Shown: positions 27,196 to 62,180 of the stretch, one piece after another
How the letters are laid out: every line of letters begins with the position of its first letter
Numbering within the stretch: the stretch's first letter is position 1
Source of the DNA: an uncultured Candidatus Saccharimonas sp.
GTDB lineage: Bacteria > Patescibacteriota > Saccharimonadia > Saccharimonadales > OMJO01
DNA length: 64,000 nucleotides
Assembly: GCA_943353165.1 (NCBI GenBank)
Contig: CALRAM010000001.1
Span: forward strand, 173,803-237,802
Direction: 5' to 3'
Notes under the pieces: generated by a model
The model's input: only the letters and a program-made list of their open reading frames with translations
Told to the model about the DNA's origin: nothing
Databases searched by the model: none
Made by a program: the position numbers and the translations under genes

Positions 27196-27648
27196 TTATA
27201 GATAATCAAAAAATTTGGTCTGTTGTTTGTCTAGGTTGTTGTAGTTTTCGTGGCACAAAAACTCTGGCAGAACATTATGTGCGCTTGGGTCTATAAACGC
27301 ATACTCCGCTATTTCTTTTTCGCCGTGCGTGGTTTTTGACAAATCAAGCCTTAGATAATCCTTGGCATTATTTATCAAAAAGAAAAACTCGATGTGATCC
27401 TCGTCCTTGCCGGCATATTTACCCTTGAACTGTTGAACATAGAGCAATGTGCCTATGTCTGGTTTTATACCCGTTTCTTCTACCAGCTCGCGCTCTAGGG
27501 CAGACAATAATGGTTCGCATTCTTCCACGCCACCACCAAAAGTACACCAAAAATCTTTTGGACCATCGCTGTTATAGTCGCGGTGTCTGATGCTCAACAT
27601 TTTGCCGTCCACGACTATTATGCCCCTGACTGCTATGCGTCTATTCAT
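27196..27648 (-). CDS. NUDIX hydrolase
   Basis: Nudix box GGGVEECEPLLSALERELVEETG. Confidence 0.85.
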   Translation of the reverse strand: MNRRIAVRGIIVVDGKMLSIRHRDYNSDGPKDFWCTFGGGVEECEPLLSALERELVEETGIKPDIGTLLYVQQFKGKYAGKDEDHIEFFFLINNAKDYLRLDLSKTTHGEKEIAEYAFIDPSAHNVLPEFLCHENYNNLDKQQTKFFDYL

Positions 27649-27706
27649 GCAGTAATATTAGCATACCTTTCCAAAGCAGCGGACCGCAGTTACAATTACT
27701 AGATAC

Positions 27707-29242
27707 ATGGAACAAGATGAAGCAATTGCACTCTTAGAATCTGGCCAATCAGTGCTACTGACAGGTGCTGCTGGAACCGGCAAAACTTTTGTACTGCGCA
27801 AATTTATACGCCGAGCCCGCAACGACGGCAAAATTGTATCTGTAACTGCTACCACTGGCTTGGCCGCAACTCATTTAAACGGAGCAACTATACACTCCTG
27901 GGCGGGTATCGGGATCCATGACGAGCTACCACCAAAACATCTGCAAAAAATTAGCAAACAACGACGAGACATAATTTCCAAAACCGACATACTAGTTATA
28001 GACGAGATTAGTATGCTACACGATTTTAGACTAGACATCATAGACACGGTCCTGCGTCATGTTCGAGACAAAGACATGCCTTTTGGCGGGATTCAAATAG
28101 TCCTCTGCGGAGACTTTTTTCAGCTACCGCCAGTCAATCGGAGGGACGCAATGCAGGGTGGTTTTATCACTAACTCAAAAGTTTGGAAAACTGGCTTTAT
28201 GACTGTTTGCTACCTAGAAAAACAATACCGCCAAGCAGGAGACAGCCAGTACGCGGACATCCTAAACGGTATACGCGGCGGAGTACTACGAAGGAGCCAG
28301 CTAGAATCCCTGAAAGCTAGAGCCAATGCCGTCGTAGATCCGTTTATTACCAGCACCAAGCTTCTGACAACAAATGCCGATGTCGATGTAATAAACCTAC
28401 AACACCTAGACAAGTTAAAGTCAAAAGTGCACAGCTATGAAATGCAGACTACTGGTAGCAAAAAATATATTGACCAGCTAAAAAAATCCTGTCTAGCTCC
28501 AGAAACATTGCTTCTCAAAAAAGGTGCCAGCGTAATGTGTATCAAAAATAGCCCTGACAGAAAATATGTTAATGGTTCGCTGGGTATTGTTACAGATTTT
28601 GAAAAATCTACTGATAACCCAATTATTCAGTTAAACACTGGGAAAACAATTACCGTTCGGCCAGATACATGGGAGCTAATAGATGGCGACAAAAAACGGG
28701 CCAGCCTGTCTCAGTTTCCGCTACGTCTAGCCTGGGCAATAACTGTACACAAAAGTCAGGGGATGACACTGGACGATGCCCAAATAGACCTCAGCCGAGC
28801 ATTTGTGGAAGGCATGGGTTACGTTGCCTTGTCTAGAATTAGGGGTCTGAAACACCTAGTGCTGGACGGGTTAAACAACATGGCCCTAAGAGTCAGCCCC
28901 AGCGCAAAACAAATAGATACAGATCTAAGAGAGAGAAGCAAAAAAGCAAAAACATTGCACTCGGAGGTAATAGCTAATTGGAATAAGTCAGAAAAAACCC
29001 GTGTCTCTAAACCAGATAAACCAACAAGCACAGCTGGACCGTGGGCTACAAAACTAGAACAAATGCGACGCAAATACCCAAATGCCTACAGGCCATGGAA
29101 GCCGACAGACGATGTTGAACTAAAAAGATTATTTGATATGAATACCCCCTTGTCGGACTTGACCAAAACTTTCGGCAGACATCCTGGAAGTATCCAAAAA
29201 CGCATAGAAAAACATTACGGAGAGGGCATCGCAATAGTCTGA
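27707..29242 (+). CDS. Pif1/RecD-family (SF1B) DNA helicase
   Basis: Walker A GAAGTGKTF, Walker B VIDEISML, FFQLPPV, and AITVHKSQGMTL near the C-terminus, followed by a basic helical tail. Confidence 0.8.
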   Translation: MEQDEAIALLESGQSVLLTGAAGTGKTFVLRKFIRRARNDGKIVSVTATTGLAATHLNGATIHSWAGIGIHDELPPKHLQKISKQRRDIISKTDILVIDEISMLHDFRLDIIDTVLRHVRDKDMPFGGIQIVLCGDFFQLPPVNRRDAMQGGFITNSKVWKTGFMTVCYLEKQYRQAGDSQYADILNGIRGGVLRRSQLESLKARANAVVDPFITSTKLLTTNADVDVINLQHLDKLKSKVHSYEMQTTGSKKYIDQLKKSCLAPETLLLKKGASVMCIKNSPDRKYVNGSLGIVTDFEKSTDNPIIQLNTGKTITVRPDTWELIDGDKKRASLSQFPLRLAWAITVHKSQGMTLDDAQIDLSRAFVEGMGYVALSRIRGLKHLVLDGLNNMALRVSPSAKQIDTDLRERSKKAKTLHSEVIANWNKSEKTRVSKPDKPTSTAGPWATKLEQMRRKYPNAYRPWKPTDDVELKRLFDMNTPLSDLTKTFGRHPGSIQKRIEKHYGEGIAIV

Positions 29243-29300
29243 TTAGTAAAACTATATTTAAAATGTGCTAAAATAGGATTGTTAACAATTTAATATCAAG

Positions 29301-29502
29301 AGTGCAGTTAGAGTCCTAGCTCCGTAACCTGCCAGCAACCTGCCGTATTGGAATATGAAAGGTGGAATATAGAAATTGGTTTTATAACCCAAATTCAAAC
29401 TTCCATCTACTAACTTCTAAGCCGTAAGGTGCTAAGCCTAGCCCGCAAGGGAAGGATACGAAGATGATTTTTTATCCTTTCTACGCCAGAAAGGATATTT
29501 TT
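29301..29502 (+). promoter_or_regulatory. Riboswitch-like 5' leader with alternative antiterminator / terminator-RBS-sequestering hairpins
   Basis: Terminator: ATCCTTTC (29474-81) pairs with GAAAGGAT (29489-96), followed by ATTTTT and then ATG 29503. The 3' arm contains the only SD-like AAAGGA. The upstream GAAGGATA (29451-58) can pair instead with TATCCTT (29472-78). The upstream ~150 nt folds into nested helices: 29307-11/29410-14, 29361-67/29401-07, and a CCC-GCAA-GGG hairpin. Confidence 0.55.
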
Positions 29503-29763
29503 ATGTCAGAGAAAATAATACCAACTAATAATTACAGCCCAGAATTGGAACCTAAAGTAGAGATCCAAACAGGTTTTGTTCCGACAGATCAATCACAGAA
29601 TGAATTTTTAGGCCGGTATGTCGATTGTACGTTCGAAGAACTATTAGAAGCAAACCGACGAGTCCGAACTGGACCAGGCTGGGTCTCGGCTCGGGGTCGC
29701 TGTGCTAGCGCCATTGCCAGCGAATTTTACGCCAGAGGAATAGAACATCTTTTAGAAGAATAG
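29503..29763 (+). CDS. Hypothetical 86-aa protein
   Basis: In-frame Met 14 of track ORF 29464..29763. The upstream 39 nt form the leader terminator, so ATG 29503 is the plausible start. No recognisable motif. Confidence 0.45.
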   Translation: MSEKIIPTNNYSPELEPKVEIQTGFVPTDQSQNEFLGRYVDCTFEELLEANRRVRTGPGWVSARGRCASAIASEFYARGIEHLLEE

Positions 29764-29767
29764 CACC

Positions 29768-29983
29768 CTAAAATAGCTGACCTTGGCCAGGAAGTATGAA
29801 AGTTTCTGTATCGTACATATCTGCAAATTCTTTCAGGTTTCTGTCTGTGTTTTCTGTATCGGGCCCTATTTCCGTGTCAATGTTTTTCGGCATTATAACG
29901 TTTGCTTCGGCTTCTGACAAAACGTACTTTTCTGGAAAAACTGCTTCCAATATTTCATAATTAGACATTAGTCTTTTCCCCAT
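29768..29983 (-). CDS. Hypothetical acidic 71-aa protein
   Basis: ORF only. Co-oriented with, and 42 nt downstream of, the WhiB-like gene. Confidence 0.35.
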   Translation of the reverse strand: MGKRLMSNYEILEAVFPEKYVLSEAEANVIMPKNIDTEIGPDTENTDRNLKEFADMYDTETFILPGQGQLF

Positions 29984-30025
29984 AAATTATATTGTACACG
30001 AATAATCAGACAACTTTTTCTTTTT

Positions 30026-30760
30026 TTAGTAAGGCAATTGGGTGTTTGAAGTAGTATTTGAAGTTATGTTTTTTGTTTTTCGCTTGCGCCGCCTATCTGC
30101 CTCGTTTGTTCCGCCCCATATTCCTTGTATATTGTCGTTATTTAATGCAAACTCTTCGCATTGAACTCTAACTTCACAGTTACTGCATATCACTGCTACG
30201 GCATTAGATATCCATCTAGATGGGGGGAAGAAAAGATTTACATCCATACCTTTACACGCAGCTTTGCCGACAAACTCAGAAATCTGCGGGCCTTTCATCT
30301 GATAATCTCGTTTGTTAGAGCTATTAGGACCAAAATTAATTTCATTTAAGTGATTCTCTGTTCTGTATCGCTTGTCTTCACGACTAATAGCAATGTTGCA
30401 AAAATTTAGCAAATCTTTTTGGGGCAATAACAAATTATAGGAGCCTGCATCTGTCTGTTGTTGCACTATACGCATTAACAAGTTAATGTCTTTTACGTCA
30501 TTTATGGTATTCAATTTTAGCCATTTTCCGTCTAGAGAATCTAGAGATTTTAGCTTTTCTAATAGATTTTCTATTCCCTCAAAATCTATGCGGTTTTCTT
30601 CGGAATGATTTATTTCAAGCGGTTCTAGTAGATCATCCGACACGATAACCAGCTCCATGCCTTCATCCAATTCATCGGTCAAACCAAAATGAACTGGAGC
30701 ATCTTCTAGGTTTTCGATAATATCCAAATGGTACGAATTAATTGTATTTTCTGATGACAT
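30026..30760 (-). CDS. WhiB-like (Wbl) Fe-S transcription factor domain fused to a ~170-aa acidic N-terminal extension
   Basis: The C-terminal ~70 aa carry four Cys (C..x23..CSNCEVRVQC), then the GIWGG turn motif and a basic tail RRRKRKTK. That is the Wbl signature order. Confidence 0.7.
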   Translation of the reverse strand: MSSENTINSYHLDIIENLEDAPVHFGLTDELDEGMELVIVSDDLLEPLEINHSEENRIDFEGIENLLEKLKSLDSLDGKWLKLNTINDVKDINLLMRIVQQQTDAGSYNLLLPQKDLLNFCNIAISREDKRYRTENHLNEINFGPNSSNKRDYQMKGPQISEFVGKAACKGMDVNLFFPPSRWISNAVAVICSNCEVRVQCEEFALNNDNIQGIWGGTNEADRRRKRKTKNITSNTTSNTQLPY

Positions 30761-30845
30761 ATCATTATTATGACATAAATATTTGTGTCATACAATGTTA
30801 AAAGCAGTGGACGGAAGCACTACCTTTTTGGTAAGATATAGCATT

Positions 30846-32058: not shown

Positions 32059-33597
32059 GTGGTCATGGACCAAATCCAAAAATTAACCAAACAATTTAGC
32101 CGATTCTTGACTGTGCTTTTTGTATTTATTTCGCTCGTATCTATATTGTTGAGTTCTCTAATACATTATTTTACGGGCATAGACACGGTATTGTCTGCTG
32201 TGATAGTTCTATGTTTTAGCCTAGCACTGAGTGTAGCTCTGGCGCCTATGGCGGCTAGCTACATTACCAAACCAATGTCAGTTCTGGCTCAGGCCATACT
32301 ACACATAACTCCAGAAGAAACTTCCGCTCCCGCACCAGACATAACAACATTGGGTATCGGCAGAAAACTAGTAACACAACTAGTCACACAGGTTTACAAT
32401 TTCGCCACTCAGCAAGACGGCTCAGCACTAGAAAATCATCGTAATTCAATAATCCAGTCGTCTGCCATTGTTACTCATTTGCCTCTACCTTTATTTGTTT
32501 TCAACAAACAGCAGATAGTTGTTAATGCCTCTGCCGCGGGCCTAGCGTATTGCAATATCAAAAGTTCGCAATTATTCGGAAAACCATTGAACGAGAATAT
32601 AAATCTAGAATTTTCAAACGAGAACACTCTGGAGAAATGGATACAAGATTGTCAAAAAGATAAAGCCACCGACGAAGCATATTGGGATCGCGTTCGTGTC
32701 AGTCAGCCAGACACAGAACTACGTCAATGCGATATTTACGCCTACTACAACCGTGACAACCCCAGTGGTACGGAATTTATAATAACCATGTTCGACCGTA
32801 CGAAACAGTACACCCAAGATGATGACAACATTAGCTTTATATCGTTGGCAGTACACGAATTACGCACACCATTGACTATGCTACGAGGTTACATAGAAGT
32901 CTTCCATGACGAGTTAGAGGGGAAACTAGATACCGAGCTGACTGACTTTATGCAAAAAATGATTGTATCGGCTCAACAGTTGGGAGCGTTTTTCAATAAC
33001 ATACTAAATGTTGCTCGCGTAGAACAAAACCAATTAGTACTGTCTATGTCAGAAAACAATTGGAGCGAAGTCCTGACAGATGCGTGTGCTGATCTAGCCA
33101 TGAAGGCCAAAGTCCACGGAAAATCATTAAATCTAAATATATCTGCAGACCTACCGCTTGTAGCTATAGACCATGTCAGCATAGTAGAAGTCATAAACAA
33201 TCTGGTGGACAACGCCCTAAAATACAGCCAAAAAGGCGAAGCTATAGCCATAGACGCACATTTGCGAAAAGACGGCTTCATAGAAACCACCATACAGGAC
33301 CACGGAGAAGGCGTCCCTAGCGGGATGGTACCTCATTTGTTTGATAAATTTTATAGGAACCACAGGACTTCTGGCAGCGTTGGCGGAACTGGTTTGGGTC
33401 TCTATATCAGCAAAGCAATTGTTACGGCACATGGTGGCGAGATATGGGTCCAGTCAAAAGAAGGCGAGGGGGCAACATTTGGTTTTACTTTGTTGCCGGC
33501 TAGCAAACTTGCCGAAGAGTTAAAATCAAGCGATAATGGTACTATAGTCCGTAACGCCCACGGCTGGATAAAAAACCACAGCCTGTACCGACGATAA
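32059..33597 (+). CDS. Sensor histidine kinase
   Basis: Two N-terminal TM helices. H-box AVHELRTPLTML. N-box NLVDNALKYS, G1 DHGEGV, G2 GGTGLGLYISK. Confidence 0.88.
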   Translation: MVMDQIQKLTKQFSRFLTVLFVFISLVSILLSSLIHYFTGIDTVLSAVIVLCFSLALSVALAPMAASYITKPMSVLAQAILHITPEETSAPAPDITTLGIGRKLVTQLVTQVYNFATQQDGSALENHRNSIIQSSAIVTHLPLPLFVFNKQQIVVNASAAGLAYCNIKSSQLFGKPLNENINLEFSNENTLEKWIQDCQKDKATDEAYWDRVRVSQPDTELRQCDIYAYYNRDNPSGTEFIITMFDRTKQYTQDDDNISFISLAVHELRTPLTMLRGYIEVFHDELEGKLDTELTDFMQKMIVSAQQLGAFFNNILNVARVEQNQLVLSMSENNWSEVLTDACADLAMKAKVHGKSLNLNISADLPLVAIDHVSIVEVINNLVDNALKYSQKGEAIAIDAHLRKDGFIETTIQDHGEGVPSGMVPHLFDKFYRNHRTSGSVGGTGLGLYISKAIVTAHGGEIWVQSKEGEGATFGFTLLPASKLAEELKSSDNGTIVRNAHGWIKNHSLYRR

Positions 33598-36232: not shown

Positions 36233-36271
36233 CAGCCATAATAAAGCACAAGCCTTTTATTGGCTGTTTTT
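36233..36271 (+). terminator. Strong intrinsic terminator (bidirectional-looking)
   Basis: CAGCCA(T)AATAAAG...CTTTTATTGGCTG gives a ~13-bp stem with one bulge, followed by TTTTT (36267-71). It ends 4 nt before ATG 36275. Confidence 0.7.
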
Positions 36272-36274
36272 ACT

Positions 36275-37615
36275 ATGGCTACGCAAATTACCAGCCCTAT
36301 AATTATCGGAATTGCCGTACAATCGGGCAGCCTGTTAATCGGTGCAGTATTAATGTTTTTGGTAATTGCTCCAGTTGCTGTGTTTTTTGTCTTAAAATCT
36401 CGCAAAAATACAAATAAAAGCGTTCAGGGCAGTAAACACGATGCCCAAACAGAAAAAGTAAAATCCGACATCGTGCTGGCGGCCATTGACGATGGAGTAA
36501 TAGTCATAAACAGCGACCAGACTATTTCGGTATTTAACAAAGGAGCGTCACAAATAACTGGCTGGTCTGCCGAAGAAGCCGAAAAGTTAGTATACAAATC
36601 CGTCATAAAACTATTGGACGATAAGGGTGTTGTCTATACCGAAGAAGCCGACCCATTCCAAAAAGTTTTTCAATCCAAACTACCATTTCGCGACAACACT
36701 GCAGTTCTGGCTACAAAGGCTGGCAAACAGGTTCCAATTCACTTGTCTGTTTCTCCATTGATCGACACAAATAGTAGCGTATCTTCAGTAGTTGGTGTTT
36801 TTCGGGATGTAACGCAGGAGCGTGCCAGAGAAATACAAAGAGACGAATTTATCAGCACAGCCAGCCACGAGATGCGCACACCAGTAGCTGCCATAGAAGG
36901 CTACCTAGCGCTAGCCCTAAACGACCATGTTTCGACCATAGACCAAAAAGCTAGGCAATATCTAGAAAAAGCCCACACTAGCACTCAACATCTGGGCAAG
37001 CTTTTTCAGGACCTGCTAACCAGCTCAAAAGCCGAAGACGGCAGACTCGCCCAACACGTACAAGTAGTAGAGCTGGGAAGTTTCTTGTCCAAAATGTCTG
37101 ACAGCCTAAAGCTTGCAGCCGAAAAAAAGAGCTTGATAACGGAATATATTGTGGGTTCAAACAAATCACACGAAACAGACGGCGCTGGCAAAGTTATTTC
37201 GCCACTGTACTATGTCATGATTGACCCGGACAGGCTCCAAGAAGTCGTAACAAACCTGTTCGACAATGCTGTAAAATACACAGTAACAGGCAAGGTAACC
37301 ATCGGTCTAACTGGCGATGATAATGTTGTTCAGTTTTATATAAAAGACACTGGAGCTGGCATTGCAACAGAAGACGCCCAGCACTTGTTCCAGAAATTTT
37401 ATAGACTGGACAATTCTGCCACTCGAAGTATTGGTGGCACTGGGTTGGGACTATTTATTTCTCGTAAAATTATAGAATTAAACAAAGGCCGTATTTGGGT
37501 AGAAAGCGAACTCGACAAGGGCAGCACATTCTACGTAAACTTGCCCAGAATTGATTCAAAAAAAGCTATACAGCTACAGGAGAAAAACAATGCGTCACAG
37601 CCAATCAATATATGA
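36275..37615 (+). CDS. PAS-domain sensor histidine kinase
   Basis: The track start TTG 36260 lies inside the terminator stem, so I prefer ATG 36275. One or two TM helices and a PAS-like segment. H-box ASHEMRTPVAAI. NLFDNAVKYT, DTGAGI, GGTGLGLFISR. Confidence 0.88.
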   Translation: MATQITSPIIIGIAVQSGSLLIGAVLMFLVIAPVAVFFVLKSRKNTNKSVQGSKHDAQTEKVKSDIVLAAIDDGVIVINSDQTISVFNKGASQITGWSAEEAEKLVYKSVIKLLDDKGVVYTEEADPFQKVFQSKLPFRDNTAVLATKAGKQVPIHLSVSPLIDTNSSVSSVVGVFRDVTQERAREIQRDEFISTASHEMRTPVAAIEGYLALALNDHVSTIDQKARQYLEKAHTSTQHLGKLFQDLLTSSKAEDGRLAQHVQVVELGSFLSKMSDSLKLAAEKKSLITEYIVGSNKSHETDGAGKVISPLYYVMIDPDRLQEVVTNLFDNAVKYTVTGKVTIGLTGDDNVVQFYIKDTGAGIATEDAQHLFQKFYRLDNSATRSIGGTGLGLFISRKIIELNKGRIWVESELDKGSTFYVNLPRIDSKKAIQLQEKNNASQPINI

Positions 37616-37659: not shown

Positions 37660-38577
37660 ATGTCAAAAATAATGTTAGTAGAAGACGATGATAACCTCCG
37701 CGAAATATACGAGGCAAGGTTGCTGGCAGAAGGCTATGAAATTGTCAGTGCCAGAGACGGAGAGGAAGCCTTGGCCATAGCCGTAAGGGAAAAACCTGAC
37801 CTCATAATTGCAGACGTAATGATGCCCAAAATTAGTGGCTTTGATATGCTAGATATACTGCGCAGCACACCAACTACAAAGGACGTAAAAGTCATAATGA
37901 TGACAGCTCTTTCGCAGGCCGAAGACAAAGACCGGGCTGAAAAACTTGGCGCCGATCGATATCTTGTAAAATCTCAGGTAACCCTGGAAGACGTAGCCAG
38001 AGTAACCGGAGAAGTTCTCCAGGGGAATGCACCGGCAGCCACACCGGCAGAACCAAACACAATGGCGGTAGCGGATACATCGGTAGCAATGGCTCCAATC
38101 ACTCAATCTATGCCAGTAGCCACTGAACCCACTCCAGTTATTATAAATACACAGCCGGCCCCGGCTAGCTCAGAAACCACTATTGAACAACCCGCAGTAG
38201 CACCTCCAGAACCAGAACACGCACCTGTAAACGAACCTATAAAAATAAATGTTTCGTCAGATACAACGGCGGCCGAACCAACGACTATAGCACCCACACA
38301 GCAACCCCCAGCCCAAGACACAGCCGGCTACGCACCTACAGTTGGTGGTCCAGACCATTTAAAAAGTCTGGGAGACGATTCGCCAGTGTCTAACAAAAAA
38401 ATCATTCAACCCATACACGACCTTAGCCAAAAACCAGATATTCACAGATTGTTGGACATGGAGGGGCCTGGAAACATTTCCGTGCCTAGCGCACCCACAG
38501 ATACCATCATTTCCCCAACAGGCGAGATTTCCGCGTCCCCTGATTCTGCAGTAGACCCCAACTCTGTGGCACTTTGA
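37660..38577 (+). CDS. Response regulator receiver domain + ~180-aa Pro/Ala/Thr/Gln-rich tail (no recognisable output domain)
   Basis: MLVEDDDNL, DLIIADVMMP, MMTAL, YLVKS. Residues from about 125 to 305 are low complexity (PAATPAEPNT...PTPVIINTQPAPASS...). Confidence 0.8.
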   Translation: MSKIMLVEDDDNLREIYEARLLAEGYEIVSARDGEEALAIAVREKPDLIIADVMMPKISGFDMLDILRSTPTTKDVKVIMMTALSQAEDKDRAEKLGADRYLVKSQVTLEDVARVTGEVLQGNAPAATPAEPNTMAVADTSVAMAPITQSMPVATEPTPVIINTQPAPASSETTIEQPAVAPPEPEHAPVNEPIKINVSSDTTAAEPTTIAPTQQPPAQDTAGYAPTVGGPDHLKSLGDDSPVSNKKIIQPIHDLSQKPDIHRLLDMEGPGNISVPSAPTDTIISPTGEISASPDSAVDPNSVAL

Positions 38578-45555: not shown

Positions 45556-46593
45556 ATGGACGAAACTCCTAAAAATACAATCAATATCGAACAGGTGGTT
45601 ACTGAAGTACTGAATTCTATAGAACGTGAAAGAGAAAGAGAGATTATCTCTCGCCGTTTTGGATTATTTGATCGCAAAGAAACTTTGGAACAGATAGGTG
45701 AATTGCTAGGTATAACTAGGGAACGAGTCCGACAGCTAGAAAAAGCAGTAGTAAATAAATTACGAATAACTGCTACGGAAAACAAGCTGGCAAATATAGA
45801 GAACGCCCAAAAAGCATTCAAAGAAGAGCTAGTAAAGGTTGGTGGAGTAGCCAGAATCCAGAGTCTGTCCACAAAAATTGGCAGAGAAGCAAACCGCATT
45901 GACCAGTCACGCATAGCCTTTATAGCAGAACTAAGCCCAAAGCTAGTTGTACTTGGTGACAGTGATGACTTTTATCACGTCATAGGAATCAAAAGCGTAC
46001 ATGATATCAAAAAAATTAAATCCATGGTTTCTGAAATCATAGAAACAATTAAAAAAATTGAAGAGCCAGAAACCATTGATAAAATTGCGATTTCAATGAA
46101 CAGCAATGATCCTATGCAACTTGCCGCTCTAGCTAGTACTAGCAAGCAACTAGCGACTCTAAATGGACGCTGGGGCCTGATAATTTGGCCAATGGTTAAC
46201 CCTAAAAACATTCGCGATAAGATATATGTAATCCTAAAAGAAAACGGCAAGCACATGCACTTTAACGAAATAGCAGAATCAATAAAGAGTAGCTCTTTCA
46301 AACGCAAGGACGTAACTACCCAAGCAATTCATAACGAACTAATAAAAGACAAGCGCTTTGTACTAATAGGTCGCGGCATCTACGCTCTAAAAGAATGGGG
46401 CTACGAAAAAGGAACTGTAGCCGACATAATCACAGATGTACTTAAAAAATCAAAAGAACCACTTCATAGAGATGAAATCGTAAAGCGCGTTCTAAAAAGC
46501 CGCTATGTAAAAGAAACCACTATACTGCTAAACCTACAAGGCAAACCGCAGTTTAAGAGAGTAGCAAAAGCAACCTACGCGTTAGCAAAATAA
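45556..46593 (+). CDS. Sigma-70 region-4-like HTH + HARE-HTH domain protein
   Basis: The N-terminal RRFGLFDRKETLEQIGELLGITRERVRQLEKAVVNKLR matches sigma region 4. The C-terminal ..FVLIGRGIYALKEWGY.. is typical of HARE-HTH (RpoE-delta-like) domains. Confidence 0.6.
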   Translation: MDETPKNTINIEQVVTEVLNSIEREREREIISRRFGLFDRKETLEQIGELLGITRERVRQLEKAVVNKLRITATENKLANIENAQKAFKEELVKVGGVARIQSLSTKIGREANRIDQSRIAFIAELSPKLVVLGDSDDFYHVIGIKSVHDIKKIKSMVSEIIETIKKIEEPETIDKIAISMNSNDPMQLAALASTSKQLATLNGRWGLIIWPMVNPKNIRDKIYVILKENGKHMHFNEIAESIKSSSFKRKDVTTQAIHNELIKDKRFVLIGRGIYALKEWGYEKGTVADIITDVLKKSKEPLHRDEIVKRVLKSRYVKETTILLNLQGKPQFKRVAKATYALAK

Positions 46594-60749: not shown

Positions 60750-62180
60750 CTATTCTAGTTCTTCTATGTGCCTGTATAATCTAGCGATTTCGTCTGGGTT
60801 TTCTCCATAGGAATCATTTAGGTAGACTTCCCTGTCACCACCTTCAAAATTATATTTCACCTCATTCCAGTTTACGGAGCGAACTCTAATAGATCTTTTT
60901 GGAACTACATTTCGCAAGCATCTGATAATTTCGCCGCGTAGTTCGGCACGGCCTTTTGGCGGATTTTTTACTAAATGAGGGGCTAGGCTAATGGCGTCTA
61001 GTGGATCATCGAAATGCCCCAATTTTCGTAGTTTTATGGCTATACCGTTATAGTTTAGGTCTCCCCACATTCTGTCGATTGCGCGGGCATGGACATAATC
61101 AGTCGTTGAACCCGTTCGGGATTTTGCTGATTTTATGATGTGATCCTTGGCTATCCAATCAACCTTGTTTTTCAAAAATTCCTTATCCTTGGGGCTGTCA
61201 ACTAAATGTTCGGCTGCAGCGTACCATTCGTTAGCCATTATTTTCTCGTCTTCAGGGACGGATACCGTTTCTATGAACTCCAGTGCCAGCTCGGCTAATG
61301 CTAGCTGCACCTCGGCCGAGCGAATCTTTACCCCACTATCTAGCTCGACCAGCTTGGACAGTTTATTGTCTTTTGCCACACTCACTGTTACATTTGCAGG
61401 CCTGTATAGTTTTAAGTCATTCATGTTTACACCATGTTCCATCATTCGCAGAACCAACGAAGTCGACGCAATCTTGTAGGCGGATGACCATGGAATCATA
61501 TTTGGATCTCCAGAAACTATATGTAGTCTTCGAAAATTGTTATTACTAGAAAAACTTTCGTCACGTGTATTGATATGCGGCTTGCTGATACTGCTTGTAG
61601 TCGTAGAACTGATGGGTGTTTTTACGTGTTGAGCTTTTTGAGCTACAAAATATTTACCGGTTCTGCACTCCACATGTCCAGCTCCTGATAAAATCATTCT
61701 AGTGGATAGGTGCGTAATCAACCCGTTCCAATGATCAGAATAACCATCCCAACTTTCTGATTTTTCTGGATTTATGCGTTCTAATGTTTGATAATTCTCG
61801 TGGACACCCCAGCTGATTTTTGGATCATCTCCAATAACTCTGTTGTTGAGCCTAAAATGTTGTTGTTCCAATTTACCGCCATGCAAATCTACGATTTCGG
61901 ACATTATGATTTCCCCAGCGATAACAGCCGCAACTGTCTCTCTAATGGTCTGACACTCTGGTGTCGCATACTCTGGATGATTGCCAGAATCTACATATAT
62001 CCTTGACCCATTCTGGGAAAACTGTTGAATAGTGCCCAGTTTTTTAGTCATTCTGCGACCCTCAAACAATTCGTAGATTGGTTGCTCGTACGGATTAATC
62101 TCTAGCTCTGATTCAATGCCGTAAATTCTACGTACAGGTTCAATCTCTGGACAATCAGAATAAAAATTCAACGAGGACAT
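60750..62180 (-). CDS. Pup-ligase/deamidase-family protein (PafA/Dop homolog)
   Basis: RRIYGIESELE and NGSRIYVDSGNHPEYATPEC(Q) match the N-terminal carboxylate-amine-ligase core of PafA/Dop. The 476-aa length is typical of the family. Confidence 0.7.
   Translation of the reverse strand: MSSLNFYSDCPEIEPVRRIYGIESELEINPYEQPIYELFEGRRMTKKLGTIQQFSQNGSRIYVDSGNHPEYATPECQTIRETVAAVIAGEIIMSEIVDLHGGKLEQQHFRLNNRVIGDDPKISWGVHENYQTLERINPEKSESWDGYSDHWNGLITHLSTRMILSGAGHVECRTGKYFVAQKAQHVKTPISSTTTSSISKPHINTRDESFSSNNNFRRLHIVSGDPNMIPWSSAYKIASTSLVLRMMEHGVNMNDLKLYRPANVTVSVAKDNKLSKLVELDSGVKIRSAEVQLALAELALEFIETVSVPEDEKIMANEWYAAAEHLVDSPKDKEFLKNKVDWIAKDHIIKSAKSRTGSTTDYVHARAIDRMWGDLNYNGIAIKLRKLGHFDDPLDAISLAPHLVKNPPKGRAELRGEIIRCLRNVVPKRSIRVRSVNWNEVKYNFEGGDREVYLNDSYGENPDEIARLYRHIEELE

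Follow-up and report, generated by a model that had tools for sequence, protein, structure and literature searches.

A WhiB-like protein with an acidic orphan extension encoded in a Saccharibacteria chromosome

We analysed a stretch of 64,000 nucleotides (nt) from the genome of an uncultured Candidatus Saccharimonas sp. (contig CALRAM010000001.1 of assembly GCA_943353165.1, positions 173,803 to 237,802; hereafter, the window), in which one gene encodes a protein of 244 amino acids (aa) ending in a WhiB-like (Wbl) domain. On each molecular feature open to test, the protein belongs to the Wbl family, and the fusion of its domain to an acidic, orphan N-terminal extension constitutes a new Wbl architecture. 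The family has been stated to be exclusive to Actinobacteria and their phages (PMC13013590, PMC10243135, PMC7363131), and the initial annotation of this DNA, made from the letters alone, was right to treat it as a signature of these groups (so stated in PMC13013590 and PMC10243135). This restriction, which is a descriptive rule and not a molecular criterion, does not hold for the window gene. We consider it probable, at about 0.6, that the gene derives from an old acquisition of a Wbl domain by a Saccharibacteria lineage and now encodes an iron-sulphur (Fe-S) regulator that binds region 4 of a sigma factor and carries an acidic modulatory extension.

The open reading frame (ORF) had been correctly delimited on the minus strand, with its 244 aa, and its attribution to the Wbl family is borne out by Pfam, by sequence matches in the PDB and by Foldseek. 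The Pfam family Whib (PF02467, the accession given in the initial annotation and found to be right) matches residues 165-224 over profile positions 3-63 of 65, far above the cut-off (E = 2.5e-16, 60.4 bits, for a gathering cut-off of 23.6), and nine PHROG families of WhiB type match the protein as well. The sequence search of the PDB returned only Wbl proteins (WhiB, WhiB1, WhiB4, WhiB3 and WhiB7), the top match being Streptomyces venezuelae WhiB (E = 2.7e-11), with which residues 166-228 align without gaps. An AlphaFold2 model built on a 52-sequence alignment reaches a predicted local distance difference test score (pLDDT) of 77-89 over residues 170-230, and its 15 best Foldseek matches in the PDB are all Wbl chains from complexes with region 4 of sigma-A (probability 0.57-1.00, with 1.00 for the first eight; template modelling (TM) score 0.6-0.7, target-normalised). 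The whole 244-aa model served as query, hence no E-value is below 1e-3. The predicted fold is that of Wbl domains, in which four helices surround the cluster pocket. No second Wbl-like motif is present elsewhere in the 64-kb window.

The residues expected of a Wbl protein are in place. The four putative cluster ligands, C169, C192, C195 and C201, are unchanged across 52 aligned Wbl sequences, actinobacterial ones included. Their spacing is C-x22-C-x2-C-x5-C; their order and the last two intervals had been read correctly, and only the first interval, given as x23, needs correction. The GIWGG turn (residues 213-217) and the basic tail that follows it were also rightly recognised, and the net charge of the C-terminal tail is +4 to +6 in all family members. 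In Mycobacterium tuberculosis WhiB1, an aromatic patch (AP1-4) made of W3, F17, F18 and W60 mediates binding to His516-Pro517 of sigma-A region 4, and binding through this patch was seen in all M. tuberculosis and phage Wbl proteins tested in a 2026 study (PMC13013590); mutational data on the contact are also available (PMC6954389). By alignment, the equivalent residues are F163, F177, F178 and W215, which are kept in 6 of 6 family members. The initial annotation had raised a possible interface with host-type sigma-factor or redox signalling; the residues that sigma region 4 binding requires are in place.

Comparison with the known systems places the protein apart from each of them. With WhiB1 in complex with sigma-A region 4 (6ONO/6ONU) it shares, besides the aromatic patch, the four ligands (C9/C37/C40/C46 correspond to C169/C192/C195/C201) and the fold (TM about 0.62), but identity is only 33-37%, the residue at AP1 is Phe instead of Trp, the loop between the first and second cysteines (Cys1-Cys2 loop) is shorter and the N-terminal extension is additional. 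The Streptomyces WhiB/Mycobacterium WhiB2 class (8DY7, 8DY9) takes Foldseek ranks 1-2, and in the sequence alignment residues 166-228 pair without gaps with WhiB 22-84; the four cysteines, GIWGG, the FF motif and an arginine-rich C-terminal helix are common to both, and the window domain groups near this class in the tree computed without viral sequences. Streptomyces WhiB, however, contacts DNA through its loop K37-K45 together with R67, R77 and R80 (PMC10243135), whereas this loop (KGGSTREAK) aligns here with SRWISNAVA, which has a single basic residue and lies in a hypervariable segment; R67 is replaced by I211 and R77 by A221, and R80 alone is retained, as R224. Moreover, the extension is of 164 aa against some 20 aa in WhiB, and the organism is no actinobacterium. 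As the loop and R67/R77 are not conserved, the protein is a Wbl protein and yet no orthologue of WhiB/WhiB2, and the basic loop with R67/R77/R80 that characterises this developmental, WhiA-dependent subclass is not found in it. We thus regard it as a separate, new Wbl subfamily. Longer or multidomain Wbl proteins of actinobacteria and phages (P0155 of 399 aa, P0161 of 247 aa, P0090 with two Wbl domains, PHROG 8273) illustrate that extensions are tolerated in the family, but none has the N-terminal region of the window protein in an exhaustive search.

That region, residues 1-164, is an orphan. An exhaustive HMMER search of 1.84 billion representative proteins gave four matches, of which three are real: P0002, a close orthologue; P0004; and P0086, a 216-aa protein with 33% identity over residues 54-148 and a Wbl domain at its C-terminal end. 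All three thus precede a Wbl domain, and the whole family comprises about seven sequences; the fourth match, P0087 (1298 aa), was discarded as a spurious match to a repeat protein. The extension has no Pfam, PHROG, NCBIfam or PADLOC family, and a scan with degenerate patterns found the fusion at two loci in 241 million JGI metagenome records and found the N-terminal region nowhere in IMG/VR. The early impression of a domain fused to something unrelated is confirmed, since there is no homologue outside this small family, but the acidity attributed to all of its approximately 170 aa is confined to the first 80 or so: the net charge is -18 over residues 1-80, and residues 81-165 are near neutral (+1). 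Over the first 60 aa it is -16 here, and it is -12 to -18 in each family member despite sequence divergence. Both structure predictions leave residues 1-64 disordered and place helices at about 63-71, 86-103 and 114-142, with low confidence (pLDDT 36-69 in the middle region). The middle region contains a fifth cysteine, Cys121, which is invariant in the orthologues that carry this region. It also contains one motif resembling a leucine-rich repeat (LRR) at about 70-96. A PDB profile match to the LRR of Chlorobium Roco (CtRoco; E = 4.8e-6) was nevertheless rejected as evidence of an LRR domain, because it adds up ten weak matches, one per repeat, to a single 22-residue motif, each with E of at least 8. 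P0004 (162 aa, on a 924-bp ENA contig) aligns with residues 1-66 and 155-244 of the window protein: its acidic arm runs straight into the Wbl module at Met155 (MKGPQ...), and the middle region with Cys121 is missing. This junction marks a module boundary. A canonical Wbl protein of about 90 aa could possibly be made from this internal start (30296-30298).

The gene belongs to the chromosome in which it is found. The window had been suspected to come from a member of the candidate phyla radiation (CPR), and it does belong to Saccharibacteria: of 18 window proteins looked up by exact sequence, 15 were found, and 11 of these 15 are in 90%-identity clusters with NCBI entries from metagenome-assembled genomes (MAGs) named "Candidatus Saccharibacteria bacterium". 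The window proteins sit on an NCBI contig of 510,168 bp, among core chromosomal genes (the dcw cluster with MraW, PBP2, MraY, FtsW and MurG; TopA, Der, Pth, DprA, RecO, the glutamyl- and glycyl-tRNA synthetases (GluRS and GlyRS), TatC) and surface genes typical of Saccharibacteria (sortase, PEGA, Calx-beta, DUF3048). A word-index search of 5.8 billion proteins gave three full-length relatives (78-85% identity) and P0004, that is, four cluster representatives; the orthologues are 240-244 aa long, and the distant one of 216 aa has the same architecture. In the relatives the gene order runs from a response regulator through a HisKA kinase, DUF3048, the Wbl gene, the 71-aa and 86-aa genes, a Pif1 helicase, NUDIX and GluRS on to sortase, and this order is found unchanged in at least five assemblies made independently (ENA, Logan, JGI). 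The distant P0086 directly adjoins the same GluRS, hypothetical, PEGA and sortase genes, with the Pif1, NUDIX, 86-aa and 71-aa genes missing, and with identities to the window of 75% for GluRS, 70% for sortase, 60% for PEGA, 51% for the hypothetical protein and 33% for the Wbl fusion. The presence of the same locus in a relative whose GluRS is 75% identical argues for vertical inheritance within a narrow lineage since the acquisition.

A comparison of composition and codon usage, which had been proposed as a check and was made against the window, gave no foreign signal. The GC content of the region is flat at about 0.42; that of the gene is 0.370, against 0.424 +/- 0.029 for the window, which fits its Asn/Asp/Glu/Ile-rich product, and both its GC at third codon positions (0.339 against 0.389 +/- 0.046) and its codon index (0.793 against 0.776 +/- 0.019) are ordinary for the window. 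There is no integrase, phage structural or replication gene or compositional island beside it. That it might be cargo of a prophage or mobile element was thus not upheld: its neighbours are DUF3048, histidine kinases, response regulators, GluRS and sortase genes. The gene is native in composition, chromosomally fixed and not a recent import, the last because no donor is more than about 52% identical, because GC and codon usage are native and because the gene occupies the same site in the relative with 75% GluRS identity.

It is also under selection. Between close relatives, neighbouring proteins are 94-100% identical and the Wbl protein 79-85%. Nei-Gojobori estimates of non-synonymous divergence (dN) are 0.083-0.124 for the Wbl gene and 0.000-0.033 for its neighbours; those of synonymous divergence (dS) are 0.26-0.43 and 0.00-0.20; and dN/dS is 0.29-0.32 and 0.04-0.39 (most 0.04-0.17), respectively. 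By region, the ratio of non-synonymous to synonymous differences per site (pN/pS) is 0-0.05 for residues 165-178, 0.06-0.10 for residues 192-230, 0 for residues 231-244, about 0.48 for the N-terminus and 0.80-0.99 for the Cys1-Cys2 loop (179-191); the basic stretch 223-230 has no non-synonymous change among close orthologues. The dN/dS and the regional pN/pS values thus indicate a functional gene, translated and selected. The core predicted to bind the cluster and sigma is under strong purifying selection, and the Cys1-Cys2 loop is nearly neutral or diversifying.

A promoter-like site of sigma-70 type precedes the gene (Table 1), its extended -10 element ending 3-6 nt ahead of the ATG at 30760, with no Shine-Dalgarno sequence upstream of this ATG; the geometry is retained at a distant orthologous locus (L006). 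The 71-aa gene downstream also has a promoter-like site (29986-30013, minus strand) and no Shine-Dalgarno sequence. The -10 elements of the two genes end 2-6 nt before the ATG, a geometry that suggests leaderless mRNAs for both.

Where did the domain come from? Among its 120 best profile matches, all named relatives are Actinomycetota and none is a Wbl protein named as Saccharibacteria. All 504 of the 504 matching phage records are actinophages, with identities of at most 46%, and in BLASTP the domain reaches identities of 43-52% at best. A scan of 185,579 GTDB species representatives with exact 8-residue peptides, which detects close relatives only, found no member of the fused family (unrelated Wbl genes may still occur in other Patescibacteria) and two Wbl genes in all, both in Actinomycetota MAGs with GC of about 0.6. 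As all named relatives of the domain are actinobacterial or actinophage, it is most parsimonious to assume that the transfer went into the lineage of the symbiont. The initial annotation had offered the gene as a candidate for host-to-symbiont or phage-mediated transfer; its direction stands, with phage-like sequences nearest, and a recent date does not, given a native, syntenic gene with no relative beyond about 52% identity.

The nearest relatives of the domain are Wbl genes on phage-like or viral contigs. Actinophage and freshwater actinoviral Wbl proteins (PHROG 472 and others) are nearest in the tree, with identities up to 52%; the motif C[KR]GMDVNLFFP is common to the window protein, to P0192 (contig L017) and to the IMG/VR contigs L034 and L035, and GIWGGTN is common to the window protein and to a viral family of 84-aa Wbl proteins on contigs of GC 0.44-0.48. 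These phage proteins differ in being short (78-130 aa), in lacking the N-terminal region and in lying in early or recombination gene clusters, often as tandem pairs, whereas the window gene sits in the chromosome, away from any phage genes. P0116 is on a phage-like contig (GC 0.70) beside integrase, YqaJ, RecT, RusA and DnaB genes; P0192 is on one of GC 0.57 with YqaJ, RecT and tandem Whib genes; and P0195, with tandem Whib genes, is surrounded by small ORFs that overlap (GC 0.48). On the phage-like metagenomic contigs L013 (1144-1745) and L017 (10001-10649), which carry the Wbl genes nearest to the window domain, the two tandem Whib genes overlap at their ends. IMG/VR gave 80 viral loci with related Wbl genes, with GC below 0.45 in 32 of the 80; the window has no gene in common with these 80 contigs besides the Wbl domain. 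A 43-nt match of 88% to one viral locus (L059) was not taken as a sign of recent exchange, as it only spans the KAACKGMDVNLFF motif of a high-GC phage Wbl gene. JGI sample 3300010885 gave both a Saccharibacteria contig with the fused gene (L008) and viral contigs with related Wbl genes (L029, L046 and L047; GC 0.44-0.48), so that possible donors and a recipient co-occur in one metagenome.

Trees, which had also been proposed as a check, were built by neighbour-joining on 67-69 columns, with 300 bootstrap replicates when viral sequences were included. The five close sequences group together in every bootstrap (100%). In the point estimate, the six family members also make up a single clade, supported at 65% when viral sequences are left out and at 34% when they are included. 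The sister of the core clade consists of P0086 and/or viral sequences in 268 of 300 replicates; in a further 29 it contains viral sequences, and in 2 it has none but non-viral ones.

Taken together, we propose that the ancestor of a narrow Saccharibacteria lineage took up the Wbl domain in a single, old event, either from an actinophage or from an actinobacterium, and that the domain would then have been fused to a new N-terminus and inherited vertically. By its conserved ligands, and as in established Wbl proteins (PMC6954389, PMC13013590, PMC10243135), the domain would hold a [4Fe-4S] cluster; the cluster pocket and the aromatic patch would dock on region 4 of a primary sigma factor within RNA polymerase, one that most probably belongs to the Saccharibacterium itself; and the basic C-terminal helix would contact DNA upstream of the -35 element. 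Promoter output would then depend on the status of the cluster, and hence on O2, nitric oxide (NO) or redox state. The acidic arm of about 65 aa and the 90 or so helical residues after it may act as a modulatory or auto-inhibitory module. One might speculate that the polyanionic arm competes with DNA for the basic tail or competes for surfaces of RNA polymerase, or else recruits a partner.

Several observations weigh against this proposal. The role given to the N-terminus is its weakest step, being drawn from conserved charge and analogy, and both predictions of the N-terminus are poor (pLDDT 30-69 in the full-length model, mean 36 when modelled by itself). The stretch that corresponds to the DNA-binding loop K37-K45 of WhiB, the closest relative to have been characterised, is hypervariable here instead of conserved. 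Neither rpoD, which would carry the His-Pro pair needed by Wbl proteins, nor Fe-S assembly genes, nor whiA is within the window. The Wbl gene evolves 3-10 times faster than its neighbours, with dS also raised, which fits a conflict-related role too. Finally, the phylogeny is built on about 67 columns, with 34-65% support for the six-member clade, and both comparison sets, viral and cellular, are biased because their sequences were chosen for resembling the query; the route through phages is therefore favoured and not proven.

The same features leave room for other readings. Loss of the WhiB-type DNA-binding loop, selection on an N-terminal region unique to the family and the invariance of Cys121 would also be expected if the domain had been repurposed as an Fe-S or thiol-redox module, for example a redox sensor or a protein-disulphide reductase, that no longer works through sigma and whose output passes through the new N-terminal region and a further partner. 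We find this unlikely, as strict conservation (pN about 0) extends to the aromatic patch and the basic tail, whose part is to contact sigma and DNA and not only to help in cluster ligation, and as P0004 has kept the Wbl module without the middle region and its Cys121. The intact sigma-binding patch could, on the other hand, be aimed at another cell. Cultivated Saccharibacteria are described as living on Actinobacteria (PMC10633639); the nearest relatives of the domain are phage-type Wbl genes; and the gene is the fastest evolving of its neighbourhood, with a near-neutral or diversifying loop, as expected in a host-parasite conflict. The protein might thus be a mimic or effector that targets region 4 of the primary sigma factor of an actinobacterial host, or titrates a partner of the host's Wbl proteins, and so reprograms host transcription during episymbiosis, its acidic N-terminus serving delivery or interference, much as actinophage Wbl proteins act on host sigma. 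In such a symbiont weapon modelled on phage Wbl proteins, the fast loop and acidic arm would reflect an arms race between symbiont and host, and it would be the first instance in which an episymbiont of the CPR turns a captured host- or phage-type transcription factor on its host. Yet we hold it to be rather improbable: no signal peptide, twin-arginine motif or hydrophobic segment was found in the protein, no secretion-system genes are adjacent, no route for an Fe-S protein into the host cell is known, and both promoter and context resemble those of an ordinary cytoplasmic regulator beside two-component systems.

The history of the gene could likewise be read otherwise. The single clade of six members in the neighbour-joining point estimates, synteny across moderately divergent genomes and the lack of a close donor would suit a Wbl gene ancestral to Saccharibacteria, or to an ancestor shared with Actinobacteria, and lost almost everywhere since. 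Such a scenario needs massive parallel loss, and it sits badly with the extreme rarity of the fused family (the four representatives in 5.8e9 proteins, three real matches in 1.84e9 and two loci in 241 million metagenome records), with its absence from the GTDB representatives at the reach of that scan and with the lack of Saccharibacteria names among the 120 best domain matches; we judge it very improbable. As for an artefact, in which an error of assembly or binning would have put an actinobacterial or phage fragment into a contig of Saccharibacteria, and to which the presence of two Actinobacteria-associated genes in one window (this one and the Pup-ligase-family gene described below) might point, we consider it refuted. 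The gene order is repeated in the independent ENA, Logan and JGI assemblies, the gene lies between core genes inside a contig of 510 kb, and its GC of 0.37 and window-typical codon usage contrast with a GC of 0.59-0.71 at actinobacterial loci with related domains. The old acquisition by a Saccharibacteria lineage, followed by service as a sigma-binding regulator, is the reading we retain as probable.

The features of the gene and of its surroundings are collected in Table 1. The two small genes had been said to flank the Wbl gene; both are in fact downstream, the 71-aa gene on the same strand and the 86-aa gene on the opposite one. NCBIfam and PADLOC gave no match for the 244-aa protein or for either small product, and the 71-aa product has no match in Pfam or PHROG either. 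The 71-aa gene is 97% identical in close relatives and is not present at L006. The small genes are part of a block of about 2.8 kb (27196-29983) that also comprises NUDIX and Pif1/Dda-like helicase genes and separates the GluRS and Wbl genes in the window; the helicase matches candidate defence-system helicases. The block is kept in close relatives and is absent from L006 (804-836), where the Wbl and GluRS genes are convergent and directly adjacent. The block is an insertion or deletion, and the Wbl gene is present in both forms.

Table 1. Coordinates of the fused Wbl gene, its parts and the adjacent small genes in the window
Feature	Position	Strand	Basis or remark
Fused Wbl gene, complete, 244 aa	30026..30760	-	ORF list; stop codon 30026-30028
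Wbl domain, residues 165-224	30089..30268	-	Pfam PF02467, PHROG WhiB families, PDB sequence matches, pLDDT, Foldseek
Putative cluster-ligand cysteines C169/C192/C195/C201	30158..30256	-	Codons 30254-30256, 30185-30187, 30176-30178, 30158-30160
GIWGG beta-turn, residues 213-217	30110..30124	-	G213, W215, G216, G217 invariant in 52 Wbl sequences
Basic C-terminal stretch RRRKRKTK, residues 223-230	30071..30094	-	After the GIWGG turn, within DRRRKRKTK
Hypervariable Cys1-Cys2 loop, residues 179-191	30188..30226	-	pN/pS; aligns with WhiB DNA-binding loop K37-K45
Acidic, predicted disordered segment, residues 1-66	30563..30760	-	Charge; pLDDT <50 in both AlphaFold runs; kept in P0004
Orphan, mostly helical (predicted) middle region, residues 67-154	30299..30562	-	Two models; 33% identity to P0086
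Promoter-like site of Wbl gene	30764..30795	-	Consensus scan; -35 TTGTAT/ATGACA, extended -10 TGTCATAAT
71-aa acidic protein gene, function unassigned	29768..29983	-	42 nt downstream of Wbl gene; own promoter-like site
86-aa protein gene, function unassigned	29503..29763	+	Part of the block of about 2.8 kb

On its upstream side the Wbl gene is adjoined by a divergent DUF3048 gene and then by a PAS/HisKA histidine kinase gene. Two PAS/HisKA kinases and response regulators (32059-33597, 36260-37615, 37660-38577) lie within 8 kb of it, one of the response regulators having 305 aa and a C-terminal half without assignment, and the region is rich in regulators for so small a genome. Further away, a gene at 45556-46593 (plus strand) encodes a protein of 345 aa in which a sigma-70 region 4 domain standing by itself (aa 25-70, nearest to the C-termini of RpoD and SigB) is fused to a HARE-HTH domain resembling that of the delta subunit of RNA polymerase (TIGR04567, 41.7 bits for a cut-off of 42); NCBI names a relative of it 'sigma factor-like helix-turn-helix DNA-binding protein'. 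We rejected it as the partner of the Wbl protein: it has the only region-4-like domain in the window, but reads KLRITAT, without the His-Pro pair. A second system usually associated with Actinobacteria is represented in the same window by a gene at 60750-62180 (minus strand) for a 476-aa protein of the Pup ligase family (Pfam PF03136, E = 5e-76). It falls far under the equivalog cut-offs of PafA and Dop (222 and 188 bits against 551 and 492), NCBI calls a protein at least 90% identical to it 'PafA2 family protein', and no small Pup-like ORF ending in GGQ or GGE was found near it or in the window.

We found no paper that connects WhiB with genomes of Saccharibacteria or Patescibacteria; those that the searches brought up deal with WhiB genes of hosts. 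An intact, selected and chromosomally fixed Wbl gene in Saccharibacteria breaks the taxonomic rule attached to the family. As freshwater viromics assigns hosts by using whiB as an "actinoviral hallmark" (bioRxiv 10.1101/655167), such genes could in principle lead to mis-assigned hosts; the practical impact is limited, with about seven sequences known, from uncultivated organisms. For the biology of these bacteria, the gene would be concrete molecular evidence that genes have passed from actinobacteria or actinophages to a lineage of episymbionts, the cultivated relatives of which live on Actinobacteria. For the family, the acidic orphan fusion could reveal how Wbl activity is gated, and the gene is a natural experiment on whether Wbl proteins can operate with a sigma factor from outside Actinobacteria.

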